Below, in pieces: positions 628 through 7,621 of a stretch of 31,405 nucleotides of DNA. Source of the DNA: a virus. Lineage: Duplodnaviria > Caudoviricetes. The position numbers and the translations under genes are program-made. The stretch spans positions 1-31,405 of IMG/VR virus record IMGVR_UViG_3300033485_000059. The stretch is one strand, 5' to 3'. Under the pieces are notes generated by a model. That model saw only the letters and a list, made by a program, of their open reading frames with translations. It had not been told where the DNA came from and ran no database searches. Position 1 is the first letter of the stretch; every line of letters starts with the position of its first letter.

Positions 628-2241
628 GTGCGGGAGCGGCTGGAGGGTAAGGGCCACGACAGGTCTCGGGGGCTGGGGTGGCTGGCGGTGGCGTGGCTGG
701 AGGCGCTGACGGTCCACGGGCCGGGTGATGTGCAGGGCCGGGCGGTGCGGCTGGACGATGAGCTGGCGGGTCTGACGATGGACGCCTACGCGCTCGACCC
801 GCTGGGGCGGCGCATGTATGACAGCGTCTTCTACTCCGCGCCGAAGGGCACCGACAAGTCTGGGCATGCGGCCAGGCTGGCCCTGCTGGAGGCTCTGGGG
901 CCGTGCCGGTTCGGCGGGTGGGCCGAGGGCGGGGAGCAGTACAGGCTGCTGGACTTCGTCTACACCTACCGGCCGGGTGAGGCGATGGGCCGGGCGGTGA
1001 CGCACCCGTTCGTCCGTTGCATGGCAACGGAGGAGGGGCAGACGGGCAATGTCTTCGACGCGGTCTACCTGAACCTGGCCGAGGGGCCCTTGTCGGAGGT
1101 GCCGGGCCTGGACGTGGGCCTGACCCGGGTGGTGCTGCCGGACCGTGGGCGCATCGTGCCGAGCACGGCGTCGGCTGCCGGGAAGGACGGGGGGCGCGAG
1201 TCCTTTGTGACGTTCGATGAGACGCACTTGTACACCAGCAACGAGCTGCGCCGGATGTACGCGACGGTGAGGAGGAACCTGGCGAAGCGCAAGGCGGCCG
1301 AGCCGTGGGCTCTGGAGATCACCACGATGTACGCCCCTGATGAGGGGTCGGTCGCCGAGGACACCTACCGGACGGTGCAGGCGGTCCGCGAGGGCCGGGC
1401 CCGGGCGAGGCTGTTCGCCGACCATCGGCAGGCCGATCCTCGGGGGCTGGACCGGCCGCTGCGGGAGACGTCGGAGAGGCGTCTGAGGCAGGCGATCTCG
1501 GAGTCCTACGGGTCGGCGGCCGAGTGGATGGATGTCGACGCCATCGTGTCGCAGCTTCGGGATCCGCGAACCCTGGAGAGCGACGGCCGCAGATATTTCT
1601 TGAACATGCCCTACCGCTCGACGTCGTCGTGGCTGCGTCACGGGGCGTGGGAGAAGTGTGAGCGGCCGGGGCCGCCGCCGCCGGACGACTCCCGGGTGGT
1701 CCTGGCCCTGGACGGGTCCTTCTCCAACGACTCGACGGCCGTCATCGGATGCACCGCACCGGAGGACGAGGACGAGGTTCCGCACCTGTGGGTGGTGGGG
1801 TTGTGGGAGAGGCCGCCGAACGACCCGCATTGGAGGGTGTCGCAGTCGGAGGTCGAGGAGGCGATCATCGAGGCGGCCCGGCGGTGGGATGTGGTGGAGC
1901 TGGCCGCCGACCCGTTCCGGTGGCAGCGGACCCTGGAGGCGATCAACGAGACGGGCATCGAGGTGGTCGAGTTCCCTCAGACTCCGGCTCGGATGACTCC
2001 GGCGCTGGCGTCGTGGAACGAGGCAATCCTTGAGCGGAAGGTCACCCACGACGGCCACCCGGGGCTGACCCGGCACGTCTACAACGCGGTGCTGCGGGAG
2101 GATTCGCGGGGCCGTCGGCTGATGAAGGATTCGCCGAACAGCGTCCGCAAGATCGACGCGGCGGTGGCGGCGTTGATGGCGTTCGCGAGAGCGAGCTACT
2201 ACAGCGGGTCGAGCATGACTCCGACGGTTGCGTTCGTGTGA
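628..2241 (+). CDS. terL: terminase large subunit
   Basis: Walker A-like APKGTDKSG, Walker B FVTFDETH, RNase H-like nuclease motif LALDGS, C-terminal KIDAAVA; 537 aa. Confidence 0.95.
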   Translation: MRERLEGKGHDRSRGLGWLAVAWLEALTVHGPGDVQGRAVRLDDELAGLTMDAYALDPLGRRMYDSVFYSAPKGTDKSGHAARLALLEALGPCRFGGWAEGGEQYRLLDFVYTYRPGEAMGRAVTHPFVRCMATEEGQTGNVFDAVYLNLAEGPLSEVPGLDVGLTRVVLPDRGRIVPSTASAAGKDGGRESFVTFDETHLYTSNELRRMYATVRRNLAKRKAAEPWALEITTMYAPDEGSVAEDTYRTVQAVREGRARARLFADHRQADPRGLDRPLRETSERRLRQAISESYGSAAEWMDVDAIVSQLRDPRTLESDGRRYFLNMPYRSTSSWLRHGAWEKCERPGPPPPDDSRVVLALDGSFSNDSTAVIGCTAPEDEDEVPHLWVVGLWERPPNDPHWRVSQSEVEEAIIEAARRWDVVELAADPFRWQRTLEAINETGIEVVEFPQTPARMTPALASWNEAILERKVTHDGHPGLTRHVYNAVLREDSRGRRLMKDSPNSVRKIDAAVAALMAFARASYYSGSSMTPTVAFV

Positions 2242-3470
2242 GGGAGGCCGGGGTGCTGCTGGAGATCGACCGTCTTCGGGCGGCCCGGCTCGAGTTTGAT
2301 CTTGCTCGGCGGCATCTGCCCGGGCAGCACGACCAGTCGACCCACGCCGGGAAGGGCGGCCCGGCCGGGCAGGTTCTGCCCCTCGGGGCAGGCAGCCTCG
2401 CGTTGCAGCGCGCCTACAAGGAGGAGCTGGGGGACGCCCCGTCGACCGACGGCATGACCATGCTGGTCATGGACGACGACGGTGTCCGCATCGACGCCAA
2501 GATGCTGGTCGCGGAGCGCATCGAGGCGCGCATGGCCGAGGTGCCGACCCAGACCCTGGTCGAGGAGATGGCCGACCCCCGGCTCGGTGCCATCGCCATG
2601 AACGAGGTTGACGCCCGGGCGATGCTGCTCCGCGACGGCGACGACGTCGAGGTCCCCGAGCTCGGGTACGTCAAGCTCGGCCCGAGGTTCATCGACAAGG
2701 CCACCGCCGGGGACCTTGTAGACGAGGCGTGGCAGCCGGGCGCGGACCGGGCCGCCATCGACAAGATGCTGCGCGAACAGGGCTGGGCCCCGGTCGGATC
2801 GCCGGAGGCTGAGACGGCGCTGCGCCGGATGATGGTCGGCGAGCTAGTCCACCAGTGGGCGATCACCAGCAACGACTCCGACCCGCGCTCCCTGGCGATG
2901 CAGGAGACCGCCGCCAGGGTGTTCGACGTCAAGGGCCACGCCGACTGGCCTGCCAGCTCCTACCGCGACAGTGAGCGCCGGGGGCTGCTCGCCGACTACG
3001 GGTCGAGCGTCTACGAGCCGTTCCTGCGCGCCCAGTACGCCGAGACGCAGGACTTCCTCGCCCGGCACAACATCGCCGGGATGACCCTGGTCAGAGGCAT
3101 GCAGGACGTGCCCACGCTGCGGGGTGCCGACGACCGGGCGGTCAGCTACCCCCGGGTCCACGTCGGGACGGTGACGGCGGCGGCCCGACCCCTGTCGGCG
3201 TGGTCGGCGTCCCCGTCGGTCGGCGTCCGGTTCGCCCACGGCGAGAGCCTCCCCGGGGACGGGACAGGGGAGGGGGCCGGATCTGCCGTACTGGCCGCCC
3301 GGGTCCCGGCGTCGAGGATCTTCTCCACGCCGCTGAGCGGGAGCGGCTGTCTGGCCGAGGACGAGGTCGTCGTCCTCGGCGGGTCGTTCCCCGTCCGGTA
3401 TGTGTTCGCCGACTCCCAGGTGCTCAACCCTGACCTGGAGAGCCTCATCGTTGACGAGGCACCGCGATGA
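2238..3470 (+). CDS. His-tag-led protein with C-terminal R-S-E clade ADP-ribosyltransferase-like domain
   Basis: GTGA overlap with terL. RHLPGQHDQSTHAGKG at 2310-2357. Catalytic-like motifs LVRG (3087-3098), PLSAWS (~3189-3206) and CLAEDEVVVLG (E-x-E at 3357-3365). Confidence 0.75.
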   Translation: MREAGVLLEIDRLRAARLEFDLARRHLPGQHDQSTHAGKGGPAGQVLPLGAGSLALQRAYKEELGDAPSTDGMTMLVMDDDGVRIDAKMLVAERIEARMAEVPTQTLVEEMADPRLGAIAMNEVDARAMLLRDGDDVEVPELGYVKLGPRFIDKATAGDLVDEAWQPGADRAAIDKMLREQGWAPVGSPEAETALRRMMVGELVHQWAITSNDSDPRSLAMQETAARVFDVKGHADWPASSYRDSERRGLLADYGSSVYEPFLRAQYAETQDFLARHNIAGMTLVRGMQDVPTLRGADDRAVSYPRVHVGTVTAAARPLSAWSASPSVGVRFAHGESLPGDGTGEGAGSAVLAARVPASRIFSTPLSGSGCLAEDEVVVLGGSFPVRYVFADSQVLNPDLESLIVDEAPR

Positions 3471-5092
3471 CTCTGAACGTGGACGCCGATGACCTGCACG
3501 CCGACTGGATCGCGGAGGCGGCCCGGCTGGCCGGGCACGTCCCAGACGCCGACCTGTTCCCCGAGCAGTCACGGCACGGCGGCCCCGGGAAGCACCCCAA
3601 CGGCACCCCCCAGGCCATCCACGGCGGCCCCGGGTGGGCGCACAACGCGCTGCTGGAGAAGGTCGCCGAACACGGCGGCGGCTCCCTGAAGCTCGACGGG
3701 TCCGAACCTGTCGACGGGTACATGGTCGCCGACCTGCAAGGCGGCCGGGTCATTCCGGCGGCCGACTTCTTCGACCCGGCCACCGGGCCCAGCCTGGTCG
3801 CCGAGTTCGTCCGCGAGCACCGCGCCGAATTCGACTCCCCCGACACCTTCGTCGGGTTGTGGTGGGACAAGCCCCACCGCGAGGTCGACCTCGACGTATC
3901 CCATCGGATCACCGACCGGGAGAAGGCCATCGCCAAGGGCCAGGCCGAGAACCAGCAGGGGATCTGGGACGTGGTCGCGGGGCGCGATACTGGAGACGGG
4001 TTCGTTCCGACTGGAGGTGCTGGCGTTGGCCGAGCGCGTGTTCGTCAAGCCCCCGAAGCCGGTGAGCGAGATGACCGAGGAGGAGATCGACGCCTGGTCC
4101 CGTTCCCTGTGGGAGCAGGCGGTGACGTCGATGCTCGACTCCGAGCCGCCCTCGTCGGATTCCTGAGCACCCGGCACCTCCCCGGGCAGCACAACCAGCA
4201 GGACCACGCCGGGAAGGGCGCGGCCGGAGGAATGGCCGCGCTCACCGCCGCCGAGCAGGCCGAGGTGCTCGCCAACGCCGCCCGGTACGGGGTGACCCCC
4301 GAGTCGTTCAAAGAGGCCGCCCGGGCCAGGATCGAGGCCGCCAAGTCGATGCCCGACCCGTACCAGCCCGGCCTGACCGCCTACGAGGGCGGCATCGGCT
4401 GGTACGAGATGGCGAAGGGGGAGGCCGAGAGGGTCGGCGAGGGCGACCCGGTGAAGGGGGCGGCGCTCATCGCCGTCCTGTCGTCGCAGTGCCCGTGGGA
4501 CGCCAACGTGAGATGTGCCGACGCGATGGCCCACCTCGGGCGGCACCCCGAGGAGCTGGAGAAGTACGGCGGCGACCCCTTTGAGTGGTGGCAGGGCGAG
4601 CACAAGAGGTGGGGCGACTGCGGACCCCAGACCCGGGACAAGATCGGCGGGGCGTGGCGCATCGTCCAGGGCGAGAGCCCCGGCACGGTGATCACCGGCC
4701 GGAAGCGGCAGAATTTCTTTGAGAACATCCTCGACCCGTCGAACGGGGACTTCGTCACCGTCAACGGGCACATGACCAAGGTGTTCGCCTGGGTCGCCGA
4801 CCCGTCGACCCTGAAGGTCCCGATCCCCAAGGACCCCGAGAAGACTCCCACCAAGCTGAGCAACTACCTCGCCGGGGGCGGGTTCCTCGGCCGGTCGGTC
4901 GACCGGAAGGGCAAGACCCAGAAGAACGGCAAGGTGGTCACAGAGGCGCACGTCGAAGACCTCGGCTACCGATTCGTCGGGCAGCAGATCCTCGACCTGG
5001 CGCAGGAGACAGGCCTACGGCCGAACCAGATCCAGGCGATCCTCTGGAACACGGCCGTCACCCAACCGTGGCCGAAGGCGGCGAACCTATGA
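3467..5092 (+). CDS. polyprotein-like cargo protein: acidic leader, His-tag, unknown domain, linker, His-tag, HhH DNA glycosylase-like helical domain
   Basis: ATGA overlap with the upstream gene. Tags at 3572-3628 (RHGGPGKHPNGTPQAIHGG) and 4172-4219 (RHLPGQHNQQDHAGKG). Domain 1: GYMVA...VGLWWD...VDLDVS...NQQGIWD. Domain 2: WY...IAVLSSQ.PW..N...K..NF..NI...VTVNGH...QIQAILW. Confidence 0.7.
   Translation: MTLNVDADDLHADWIAEAARLAGHVPDADLFPEQSRHGGPGKHPNGTPQAIHGGPGWAHNALLEKVAEHGGGSLKLDGSEPVDGYMVADLQGGRVIPAADFFDPATGPSLVAEFVREHRAEFDSPDTFVGLWWDKPHREVDLDVSHRITDREKAIAKGQAENQQGIWDVVAGRDTGDGFVPTGGAGVGRARVRQAPEAGERDDRGGDRRLVPFPVGAGGDVDARLRAALVGFLSTRHLPGQHNQQDHAGKGAAGGMAALTAAEQAEVLANAARYGVTPESFKEAARARIEAAKSMPDPYQPGLTAYEGGIGWYEMAKGEAERVGEGDPVKGAALIAVLSSQCPWDANVRCADAMAHLGRHPEELEKYGGDPFEWWQGEHKRWGDCGPQTRDKIGGAWRIVQGESPGTVITGRKRQNFFENILDPSNGDFVTVNGHMTKVFAWVADPSTLKVPIPKDPEKTPTKLSNYLAGGGFLGRSVDRKGKTQKNGKVVTEAHVEDLGYRFVGQQILDLAQETGLRPNQIQAILWNTAVTQPWPKAANL
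4026..4166 (+). CDS. nested out-of-frame small acidic protein (46 aa, MAERVFVKPPKPVSEMTEEEIDAWSRSLWEQAVTSMLDSEPPSSDS)
   Basis: Not in the ORF track. GGAGGT RBS at 4013-4018, TTG at 4026, TGA at 4164-4166. Third codon positions are almost all G/C in this frame, while the host frame over the same stretch reads like shifted-frame R/G-rich filler. Confidence 0.65.
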   Translation: MAERVFVKPPKPVSEMTEEEIDAWSRSLWEQAVTSMLDSEPPSSDS

Positions 5093-5238
5093 CCGTGTTC
5101 GCGAAGGCGATGGACTTCCACGCCGACCTGGGGTCTGAAGACAACCCCGACGAGGAGACGATCCGGCAGTGGCTGCTGACAGACGTTCCACCCGAGGACC
5201 GGGCAAGGATCGCCGAGAGCCTCGGCGTGGACCTGTGA
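5089..5238 (+). CDS. small acidic protein (49 aa, MTVFAKAMDFHADLGSEDNPDEETIRQWLLTDVPPEDRARIAESLGVDL)
   Basis: Not in the ORF track. ATGA overlap with 3467..5092 and GTGA overlap with the next gene, so it fills the gap exactly. Confidence 0.7.
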   Translation: MTVFAKAMDFHADLGSEDNPDEETIRQWLLTDVPPEDRARIAESLGVDL

Positions 5239-5417
5239 ATGCGAAGCGGCACCGCGTGCCGAACCAGAGCGTGATGACCACGCTCATGGAGGTGGCCGGG
5301 GCGGCGCTCACCGTCGCCGGGGCCTTCGTCGCCGTCGGGACCGGGCTCGCCCTCGTCGCCGCCGGGGCGTGGCTGCTGCTGTTCGGCTGGCTGATCGGTG
5401 ACGGGAGCGATAGGTGA
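5235..5417 (+). CDS. small membrane protein preceding the portal
   Basis: Likely GTG start at 5235 in ORF 5169..5417. Two hydrophobic helices (EVAGAALTVAGAFVAV / LALVAAGAWLLLFGWLIG). Such genes are common upstream of HK97-type portals. Confidence 0.7.
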   Translation: MNAKRHRVPNQSVMTTLMEVAGAALTVAGAFVAVGTGLALVAAGAWLLLFGWLIGDGSDR

Positions 5418-7621
5418 GCATCCTGCGGCGCGGAGCCAGCCAGCGCGGACGCCCCACCGGACCGGACGACATCGGGGAGGCCTACGTCCTCACCACGTCC
5501 TACGGGGTCGGGGAGACCAAGGACCGGGTCAACCCGGCGCAGTACCAGTCGTGGGCCGAGAACGGGTACAAGGGCAACAGCATCGTCGCCGCCGTCCTCA
5601 ACGTGCGGATCATGCTGTTCAGCGAGGCGTCGTTCGTCCTCCGCGACATCGACACCAAGGAGACCCGCTGGGACGACGCCCTGTCGATCCTTGAGACCCC
5701 CTGGCCGGGCGGCACCACCGGGGACCTCCTGTCCATCATGGAGTCCGACGTCAGCCTCGCCGGGAACAACTACCTGACCGTCCTCGACGGCGAGATCGTC
5801 CGCATCCCCCCGCACCTCCTCGACATCGTCACCGCCCCCATCATCGACTCCCGAGGCCAGGAGTCACCCCGCCGCGACCTCGTCGGCTACCTGTACAGCC
5901 CCGACGGCGTCCCGTCGGAGCGCTCGATGTTCTTCGCCCCCGGGGAGATCGCGCACTACCGGCCCCTGCCCGACCCGATGAAGCCGTGGCTCGGCATGAG
6001 CTGGCTGACCCCCGTCGTGCGGGAGATCAACAACGACATCGCGATGGGCCAGTACAGCGAGCAGTTCTTCGCGAACGCGGCCGTCCCCAACCTCCTGATC
6101 ACCTACCGGGAGAAGCTCAACGACAAGGTGCTGGAACGCACCCGGGACGCGGTCCGCGCCAAGCACGGCGGCATAGACCAGGCATTCCAGACGATGGTCC
6201 TCGACAACGGCGCGGACGTCACCGTCATCGGCAACAGCTTTGAGCAGATCTCGTTCGCGTCCGTTCGGGCCGCCGGGGAGACCCGCATCGCCGCCGCCGC
6301 CGGGGTCCCCCCGATGATCGTCGGCCTGAAGGAAGGCCTCCAGGCCAGCACGCTCGCCAACTACCGGGAGGCGCTCGACAGGTTCGCGAACCTCACCCTG
6401 CGCCCACTGTGGCGCAACGCGTGCGGGTCCCTGTCGTCTCTCGTCTCCGTGCCCGACGGGGCCCGGCTCTGGTACGACACGACCGACATCGCGGCGCTGC
6501 GCGAGGCCGAGACCGAGAGGGCGGCCATCTTCCAGACCAAGGCAGCGACCGCGTCGACCCTCATCCAGTCCGGCTACAAGTCCGAGTCCATCCCGGCCGC
6601 CGTCGAGGCCGCCGACCTGAAGCTGTTGCAGCACACCGGCCTCGTCCCGGTGCAGCTCTACGAACCCAAGGCCAAGGGCGAGGGGGCCGCCCCGCCGGGT
6701 GGGCCGCCGGGTGAGCCGGAAGACGAGACCGAAGAGTCCGACGAGCCTGCCCCGGTCGAGGAGCCGGGCGGCCGGTCGAGGAAGCCCTGCGAAGGATGCG
6801 GGGACTCCGACCTGTTCGACGCCGACCGGCTCGCCGACTCCCACCGGCACCTGGCCGGGAAGCACGACCAGCGGACCCACGCCGGGGGGAAGGCCCTCGG
6901 AGCCGCGACCCCCTACGCGGGTTCCGGCACCAAGGACGACCCCTACCGGACACCCGACCCCCTGCTGGCCGCCAAGTTCCTCGGCGAGGACAAGTACGTC
7001 CAGCTGGAGGACACCCACCAGGCCTCGACCATGCTGGACGAGGTAGCCCGAATGGTCGAGGACGCGGAGGCCAAGGGAGAGAAGGCCCCCGTCTACGACC
7101 TGTGCAAGGCGAGCGTCCCCGGCACCAACCTGTTCTGCGCCGAGTCGAAGGGCATCAAGCGCATCGAGATGCCGCAGCTCTCCGGCAAGCCCGTCCCAGG
7201 GTCGAAGGCCGACCTCCTCCCGAAGAACGCCAAGGGCGAGGTCGACATCAAGGCAGCGTTCGTCCAGAACCTCCACGACAAGGGCATGATGTCGCGGCCG
7301 ATGAAGGTCGACGCGGCCTACCTCCGCGCATCGCAGAATGAGCTGGTCGGCCGCCAGGTCGTCGGCATGCGCGATGCCCTGGAACGCGGCACCCTCCCCG
7401 CCGGTTCGATCATCGTCACGAAGGACAGGTATGTGGTCGACGGCCACCACAGGTGGGCGGCGAACATCGCCTACGAGCTGAAGCGGGGCGGCAGCCGGGT
7501 CGAGATGGACGTCGAGATGGTCGACGCCGACATCATCACCGTGCTCCGCGAGGCCTGGACCTTCGCCGAGGAGATGGGCATCCCACCCAAGTCAGGGAGC
7601 AGGAGCAGGACATGGAGCTGA
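5414..7621 (+). CDS. HK97-family portal protein with C-terminal His-tag and ParB/Sulfiredoxin-like extension
   Basis: Portal motifs LAGNNY, EIAHYR..DP....GMSWL, FFANAAVP, IAAAAGVPP.IVG up to about 6670. Then an acidic/Pro linker, RHLAGKHDQRTHAGGK (6845-6892), and a domain with LRASQNEL and VVDGHHRWAA (DGHHR at 7439-7453). Confidence 0.9.
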   Translation: MSILRRGASQRGRPTGPDDIGEAYVLTTSYGVGETKDRVNPAQYQSWAENGYKGNSIVAAVLNVRIMLFSEASFVLRDIDTKETRWDDALSILETPWPGGTTGDLLSIMESDVSLAGNNYLTVLDGEIVRIPPHLLDIVTAPIIDSRGQESPRRDLVGYLYSPDGVPSERSMFFAPGEIAHYRPLPDPMKPWLGMSWLTPVVREINNDIAMGQYSEQFFANAAVPNLLITYREKLNDKVLERTRDAVRAKHGGIDQAFQTMVLDNGADVTVIGNSFEQISFASVRAAGETRIAAAAGVPPMIVGLKEGLQASTLANYREALDRFANLTLRPLWRNACGSLSSLVSVPDGARLWYDTTDIAALREAETERAAIFQTKAATASTLIQSGYKSESIPAAVEAADLKLLQHTGLVPVQLYEPKAKGEGAAPPGGPPGEPEDETEESDEPAPVEEPGGRSRKPCEGCGDSDLFDADRLADSHRHLAGKHDQRTHAGGKALGAATPYAGSGTKDDPYRTPDPLLAAKFLGEDKYVQLEDTHQASTMLDEVARMVEDAEAKGEKAPVYDLCKASVPGTNLFCAESKGIKRIEMPQLSGKPVPGSKADLLPKNAKGEVDIKAAFVQNLHDKGMMSRPMKVDAAYLRASQNELVGRQVVGMRDALERGTLPAGSIIVTKDRYVVDGHHRWAANIAYELKRGGSRVEMDVEMVDADIITVLREAWTFAEEMGIPPKSGSRSRTWS

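Follow-up and report, generated by a model that had tools for sequence, protein, structure and literature searches.

A conserved small gene nested out of frame in the linker of a phage polyprotein, and its putative role as an inhibitor of the preceding domain

The window analyzed here is the whole of a 31.4-kb contig (31,405 nucleotides; IMG/VR record IMGVR_UViG_3300033485_000059) from a tailed phage, with a G+C content of 70%. Its phage genes encode the small and large terminase subunits, portal, prohead protease, capsid, tail tube, tape measure and amidase, and its sequence is present in wetland and freshwater metagenomes. A cargo module, whose neighboring genes are linked by ATGA or GTGA overlaps, lies between the terminase large subunit and portal genes. 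One long open reading frame of this module encloses a much smaller gene in another frame, and the features concerned are these:

628-2241: terminase large subunit gene
2238-5417, plus strand: cargo module between terminase large subunit and portal, its genes chained via stop/start overlaps
3467-5092, plus strand: polyprotein ORF of 541 aa with two domains, enclosing the partner gene; same architecture in the database relative P0011
3575-3622, plus strand: first His-rich tag, ahead of domain 1
3632-4021, plus strand: domain 1, of an unnamed phage domain family with 563 relatives; ferredoxin-like model
4013-4019, plus strand: Shine-Dalgarno site GGAGGTG, within the Gly-Gly codons of the conserved C-terminal TGG motif of domain 1
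4016-4162, plus strand: read-through linker of the enclosing frame, overlapping the partner gene; rich in Arg, Gly and Asp, sequence-neutral, kept open in the family
4026-4166, plus strand: 46-aa partner gene in the +1 frame of ORF 3467-5092, TTG start at 4026, TGA at 4164-4166
4163-4166, plus strand: CTGA, in which the partner stop overlaps a CTG that shares the frame of the downstream half; may allow a coupled restart
4175-4207, plus strand: second His-rich tag, of the H..G.H.Q..H type, ahead of domain 2
4388-4786, plus strand: core of domain 2, DUF7178 (Pfam E 4e-16)
5414-7621: portal gene

The long ORF thus reads, in order, His-rich tag, domain 1, linker, second His tag and DUF7178. The H..G.H.Q..H type of tag also occurs at 2313, in ORF 2238, and at 6842, in the portal gene, and is likely to be a capsid-targeting or processing signal. 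The portal gene runs on beyond the portal domain (6842-7621) with this same tag and an extra domain matching phrog_2859. In all 31 tags seen among relatives, the enclosing frame encodes, just past the partner stop, a conserved stretch that ends in Lys or Arg directly before the tag's first His (loci L060, L248, L254, L275 and others); it is possibly a cut site of the prohead protease. Other tag types are found at the same place after the partner stop in some loci. Two features of polyvalent proteins are present, namely at least two disparate domains per polypeptide that vary among relatives, and a position among virion assembly genes, in the terminase-portal interval; ORF 3467-5092 fits that kind of protein. 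From the gene context and the His tag common to the portal gene, we infer that the polyprotein is packaged and injected.

The rest of the cargo module contains comparable units. Upstream, 2238-3470 encodes a His-tagged cargo protein of 410 aa, for which Pfam, PHROGs and NCBIfam gave no family and viral contigs no relative. Its stop is overlapped by the start of the polyprotein, of which residues 1-35 (3467-3571) form an acidic segment before the first His tag; this segment may be a partner of the 2238 domain that became fused to the next unit. Domain 2 has no close relatives in the viral contigs searched. Coupled to the stop of the DUF7178 half is an acidic ORF of 49 aa (5089-5238) with coding-like composition (GC3 0.88) and no Pfam or PHROGs family, a candidate partner of DUF7178. 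Neither small acidic segment (3467-3571 or 5089-5238) matches the profile of the domain-1 partner.

The small gene has its own ribosome site, start and stop wholly inside ORF 3467-5092. An earlier note, made from the letters of this stretch, had described GGAGGT, a TTG at 4026 and a stop at 4166, and these are present: GGAGGTG is followed by 46 codons and a TGA. The start indeed falls just after the conserved TGG at the end of domain 1, where that note had put it, and the stop lies 5 nucleotides ahead of an Arg codon, after which comes the second His motif (His at 4175). GTG 4017 was rejected as the start since it falls within the ribosome site, and TTG 4026 is preferred. GGAGG stands before many genes of this phage, and GGAGGTG occurs five times on the plus strand of the window. 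The RNA fold at the partner start site is ordinary (z -0.37). Sequencing or assembly error was ruled out as the source of the double-open stretch, because contigs from other samples match it: one from a second sample of the same study, taken in another year, covers 3345-4181 with zero differences, and one from another study matches 4147-4539. A further run, X1, was left out of this comparison, since the window may derive from it.

Codon usage separates the two frames sharply. Across a stretch of 49 codons, the small frame has a GC3 of 0.96 and the enclosing frame one of 0.47; seven long phage genes have 0.91-0.96. The codon score places the small frame ahead by 68.6 bits. Such a difference is reached in none of 4077 overlapping 49-codon windows of the seven long genes, where the maximum is -12.0. 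A peptide profile built without the window sequence finds the 46-aa ORF as its sole match in the six window frames (46.4 bits, iE 1.2e-15). One might still regard the small ORF as an untranslated chance open frame: it has no family in Pfam, PHROGs or NCBIfam, a single-sequence search yields only chance matches in phage records and no usable Atlas match, and its exact sequence is absent from a collection of 15 billion proteins. This explanation is extremely improbable in the face of the codon signature, 120 homologs in one frame and position among the matches listed, a dN/dS ratio of 0.19 (see below), and stand-alone homologs annotated in Nonomuraea. The 46-aa ORF is a conserved gene under purifying selection and does not owe its existence to chance.

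The family had to be assembled with alignments and motif scans, since single-sequence searches with domain 1 came back empty in viral contigs and in a word-indexed protein search. A full profile-free scan found 563 domain-1 relatives at E<=0.001. Motif scans for the domain C-terminus provided at least 120 viral, 60 genome and at least 120 metagenome loci; 346 loci were pooled, 307 of these had the domain, and 215 distinct loci with at least 200 bases downstream were kept, the rest being dropped. The earlier note had predicted peptide homologs downstream of domain-1 homologs, and one directly follows domain 1 in 120 of the 215 distinct loci among the matches listed, which is not a blind count, as the profile was iterated on the same loci. 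All 120 are in the +1 frame, even though the search was free to choose any of the three. Conservation downstream of domain-1 homologs thus extends to frame, ribosome site and position, the opposite of the lack of conservation that the earlier note had named as part of what would refute it. The first 94 distinct viral loci have 93 candidate ORFs behind them, and the window peptide alone recovers 22 of these at E<0.01 (again among the matches listed), with a best value of 1.2e-8. A reverse scan with an alignment of six peptides gave 19 loci, of which 12, some already known, have domain 1 directly upstream; the other seven were not counted, being a near-identical family with a partial match of 22 residues and no domain 1. 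These seven (L159-L161 and L163-L166) form one family of small acidic ORFs that have the 22 residues in common with the peptide.

The peptide has a median length of 46 residues (range 25-72, among the matches listed) and conserves a short hydrophobic strand ending in Pro, followed by an acidic amphipathic helix. GGAGG is found at the Gly-Gly codons of the domain in 64 of 120 partner loci versus 18 of 95 loci without a partner (among the matches listed; p 2.6e-7, for loci that are not independent), and the partner loci lacking it there mostly have an upstream site and a GTG inside the Gly-Gly codons. In 95 of the 215 loci among the matches listed, the domain has its conserved Gly and acidic residue and the partner is not detected, so that the peptide is either not obligatory or replaced by unrelated ones. 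A domain-1 clade scored as having no partner (L113, L114, L138, L043 and L118) has a different small overlapping gene of similar build, below the profile threshold, and given this clade the count of 120 may be too low.

Among the matches listed, the partner gene lies within a read-through linker in 93 of the 120 loci and is an ordinary overlapping gene in 25, where the domain ends shortly past TGG; in the other two it is fused to the next gene. The cassette of domain and partner that the earlier note had proposed to be captured inside a polyprotein therefore also exists as two ordinary genes, and apparently as a fusion in P0133, where the peptide seems to be in frame with the domain. That in-frame fusion is probable, at a weak score of 9.1 bits. 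In another relative, the 2565-aa protein P0042, a peptide-like segment (residues 2444-2468) is in frame and far from domain 1. Of 106 database relatives whose sequence extends beyond the domain, 53 show an out-of-frame shadow of the peptide, versus 1 of 602 control windows, by a pattern picked by eye after the data were seen. The relatives carry zeta toxin, ADP-ribosyltransferase, papain-fold, GNAT, topoisomerase, DUF7178 and XkdF domains (any Pfam match in 16 of 50 scanned). Stand-alone domain-1 homologs in Rhodococcus phage Jflix2 (L001:903-2355) and in Madraxi (L003) lie two genes from a DUF7178-like gene annotated 'glycosyltransferase', and so the two domains co-occur unfused too.

Domain and partner also occur as two ordinary chromosomal genes in 13 Streptosporangiaceae genomes, behind PE-like and WXG100-like genes, with the domain ORF separate from the WXG100 gene (L173:286-3044 and 12 other loci). 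The stand-alone Nonomuraea members are annotated 'hypothetical'; one Nonomuraea pair is WP_189139751/WP_189139752. Neither of two nested peptides looked up was present in the 15-billion-protein collection, and the stand-alone Nonomuraea peptide was. The Nonomuraea glycinis pair follows a WXG100-like gene and faces mtnB and mtnC, and a motif of one or the other of these lies within the fetched flank in 8 of the 13 genomes. These are methionine-salvage genes that recycle MTA, the product of SAM lyases; the neighborhood is that of one lineage and may be a coincidence.

The earlier note had called for a comparison of dN/dS in the two frames. In 18 disjoint pairs of close nested relatives, the ratio is 0.19 for the partner frame, 1.10 for the enclosing frame and 0.185 for the domain. 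The note had also taken the enclosing frame to be passive read-through. This is borne out at the level of amino acids and fails for the openness of the frame, which is itself selected across the family. Loci were clustered at 70% and 80% identity, replacing a 60% single-linkage clustering that had chained most loci into 7 clusters. Of 30 cluster representatives (70% identity, among the matches listed), 24 have an open enclosing frame versus 3.4 expected from synonymous shuffles of the peptide, and in clusters with G+C below 0.55 it is open in 16 of 17 (among the matches listed) versus 0.5 expected. The nominal p of 1e-25 overstates the independence of the clusters, because they are related: a quick tree needs only 7 changes between the nested and separate states, two of them forced by well-supported branches, and leaves the older state unfixed. 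Because the enclosing frame drifts in sequence and yet stays open, both frames are selected, that of the peptide for its sequence and the enclosing one for staying open.

Several properties of the loci bear on what is translated from the enclosing frame. Of the 93 nested loci, 86 end the partner gene with TAA or TAG, and 89 offer the downstream part no start that is served by a ribosome site; this part continues for at least 100 codons in 53 of 57 judgeable loci (all among the matches listed). Together with the open frame, this suggests that the polyprotein is likely translated through the partner gene across the family. For this particular phage, the 541-aa ORF might instead be incidental, the locus consisting of three coupled genes (domain 1, the peptide, and DUF7178 restarted at CTG 4163) whose first stop was lost via one change silent in the peptide frame. 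In the window alone, chance would leave the enclosing frame open with a probability of 0.21. A single base change would turn its CGA codon at 4031 into a stop, and overlaps similar to the CTGA at 4163 connect the genes of this module. We nevertheless judge a three-gene arrangement improbable: family-wide, chance falls far short of accounting for the open frame, the downstream part of nested loci nearly always lacks a start of its own, P0011 shares the build of domain, linker, tag and DUF7178, and no ribosome site precedes CTG 4163, CTG being a weak start codon. The peptide gene would be real under that arrangement too.

A further possibility is that +1 ribosomal frameshifting near 3990-4025 joins most of the peptide made to domain 1, as a self-inhibited form. 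The +1 frame is open well upstream of 4017, its codon score begins to climb near 3980, TGG is preceded in the window by a 5-residue insertion, and P0133 resembles a hard-wired version of such a fusion. Against this, most partner loci conserve a ribosome site and a start codon, the separate-gene loci end the domain a few codons past TGG, and no conserved shift site was noticed in a search that was not systematic, making frameshifting a quite unlikely main route.

Domain 1 has no Pfam or NCBIfam family and only a marginal, unnamed match in PHROGs, and its sequence profiles match nothing in PDB or Pfam. Modeled with an alignment of 81 sequences, it reaches a pLDDT of 93.5 (a single-sequence model, at 39, was unusable), with the order strand-helix-strand-strand-helix-strand, which is ferredoxin-like. 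Conservation is strongest at G75 (199/199), W77 (191/199) and D/E88 (195/199), none of them required by the search patterns; the invariance of Q108 comes partly from patterns that required it. The idea that domain 1 is a SAM lyase started from a resemblance. The spacing of G75, W77, D88 and S90 is that of Svi3-3 and of T3 SAMase (G55, Y57, E68, T70 and Q94), matched by spacing and not by superposition. In Svi3-3 the SAM-binding residues are G56, Y58, E69, S71 and Q104 (PMC7877911). Structure searches gave no clear PDB fold match: Foldseek found none at E<=0.001, VIA-align ranked Svi3-3 (6zm9) sixteenth, tied with generic folds (Z 2.7, rmsd 4.0 over 75 residues), and 22 BFVD matches at E<=0.001 are all phage proteins without an informative name for the domain. 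The hhalign comparison with T3 SAMase was not significant (probability 0.2); known SAM-lyase members, according to PMC7877911, barely resemble each other in sequence. The structure searches do not confirm the activity. We lean slightly towards domain 1 being a lyase of SAM or a SAM derivative.

The reading that we favor, and consider rather probable as a whole, is that of a conserved 46-aa gene nested in a linker that is kept open, whose product likely binds and inhibits domain 1, a possibly SAM-cleaving and likely packaged enzyme. A single late mRNA would serve for two products, the tagged polyprotein and the free peptide, the latter initiated at the internal ribosome site. Bound to domain 1, the peptide would hold it off in the producing cell while virion cargo is made. 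Having no His tag, it would stay behind as the tagged polyprotein is packaged, and the enzyme would in this way be delivered active into the next host. There, loss of SAM would blunt restriction or BREX defense, as is reported to happen in a study of T3 (bioRxiv 10.1101/2023.02.27.530186). Phage SAM lyase Svi3-3 is described as highly toxic to its producer when expressed (PMC7877911). The arrangement could have arisen simply. As the partner starts in the +1 frame within the last codons of the domain, ribosomes would, once the domain stop was lost, read on across the partner and enter the next tagged unit, and the polyprotein could therefore grow without losing the inhibitor gene.

Binding and inhibition are putative, as is the inhibitor or immunity role that the earlier note had read from the layout. 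The peptide could be a real partner of domain 1 that acts as a chaperone, activating subunit or packaging adaptor, since linkage, selection and fusion demonstrate partnership and not its sign, and since fusion to the next tagged unit in two loci (among the matches listed) would carry the peptide into the virion. The same two loci speak against an inhibitor that is excluded from the capsid. In the window, moreover, domain 1 and the peptide are both acidic (charges -11 and -6), which like the 95 of 215 listed loci without a detectable partner tells against the favored scheme. Those 95 loci also tell against a helper, as does the confident model of domain 1 alone, and a small, fast-diverging downstream gene matches the toxin-then-immunity order established for MuF toxins (PMC12226406). 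A partner other than an inhibitor is unlikely, though it is the most probable of the alternatives.

The literature searched, consisting of openly available papers, describes neither this family nor a partner gene nested in a polyvalent protein. Out-of-frame genes within phage genes, effector-immunity pairs and polyvalent proteins are each known already; their combination in a selected linker across many phages was not found in that search. The effector-partner family is undescribed in it, and its likely inhibitor gene is nested inside the polyprotein. Gene callers report the long ORF only, and as a result nested members of the family are unannotated. For one domain, the locus indicates a way in which a polyprotein with several effectors could retain an inhibitor devoted to a domain in its interior, and it suggests a route by which such polyproteins accrete. 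A much broader view is possible, and we offer it tentatively: that polyvalent proteins of phages grow when the inhibitor genes belonging to their effector domains are read through, that their 'disordered linkers' are a hidden translated layer of inhibitors, and that the present family inhibits a virion-delivered SAM lyase. Linkers of polyvalent proteins could be screened for out-of-frame coding signatures, which might reveal effector-inhibitor pairs and toxic unknown domains. Should domain 1 be a SAM lyase, an anti-restriction enzyme would have in this peptide a small, genetically encoded inhibitor.

Comparison with known systems places the locus between several of them. Polyvalent proteins, as described by Iyer et al. 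(2017, PMC5512222), have several effector-like domains per polypeptide and are predicted to be packaged and injected. ORF 3467-5092 resembles them in joining unrelated effector-like domains in one polypeptide encoded among virion genes. It differs in its internal gene; the word 'overlap' is absent from the main text of that paper, whose supplementary domain list may include domain 1. MuF pairs such as Apk2-IapK (PMC12226406) consist of a phage-encoded toxic domain and then a cognate small gene whose product neutralizes it by binding, and a cognate small gene directly downstream of the domain is what the 120 of 215 listed loci have. Unlike those pairs, the ORF contains no MuF family (Pfam, E<=0.01), the partner lies inside the effector ORF in another frame, and the domain is not C-terminal. 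With the SAM lyases Svi3-3 and T3 gp0.3 (PMC7877911), domain 1 has in common a ferredoxin-like topology, as modeled, and a Gly, an aromatic residue at +2, an acid at +13, Ser/Thr at +15 and a later Gln; in contrast to them it has Asp for Glu, Trp for Tyr and no acid after the Gln, and gives no significant sequence or structure match. The literature searched held no protein inhibitor of phage SAM lyases. In phage ShiLan, an HNH endonuclease is hidden out of frame inside a methylase gene (PMC11855218), and there too a whole gene with its own start and stop is accommodated out of frame while the outer phage gene stays open. The ShiLan gene is presented as a selfish homing insertion, whereas the partner gene here is fixed beside its flanking domain and bears no sign of mobility. 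Finally, synthetic alternate-frame insertion (bioRxiv 10.1101/2024.11.07.622342) also places an inner gene with its own ribosome site in another frame. That design is engineered, whereas the arrangement described here is natural and widespread, and can be regarded as its natural counterpart.
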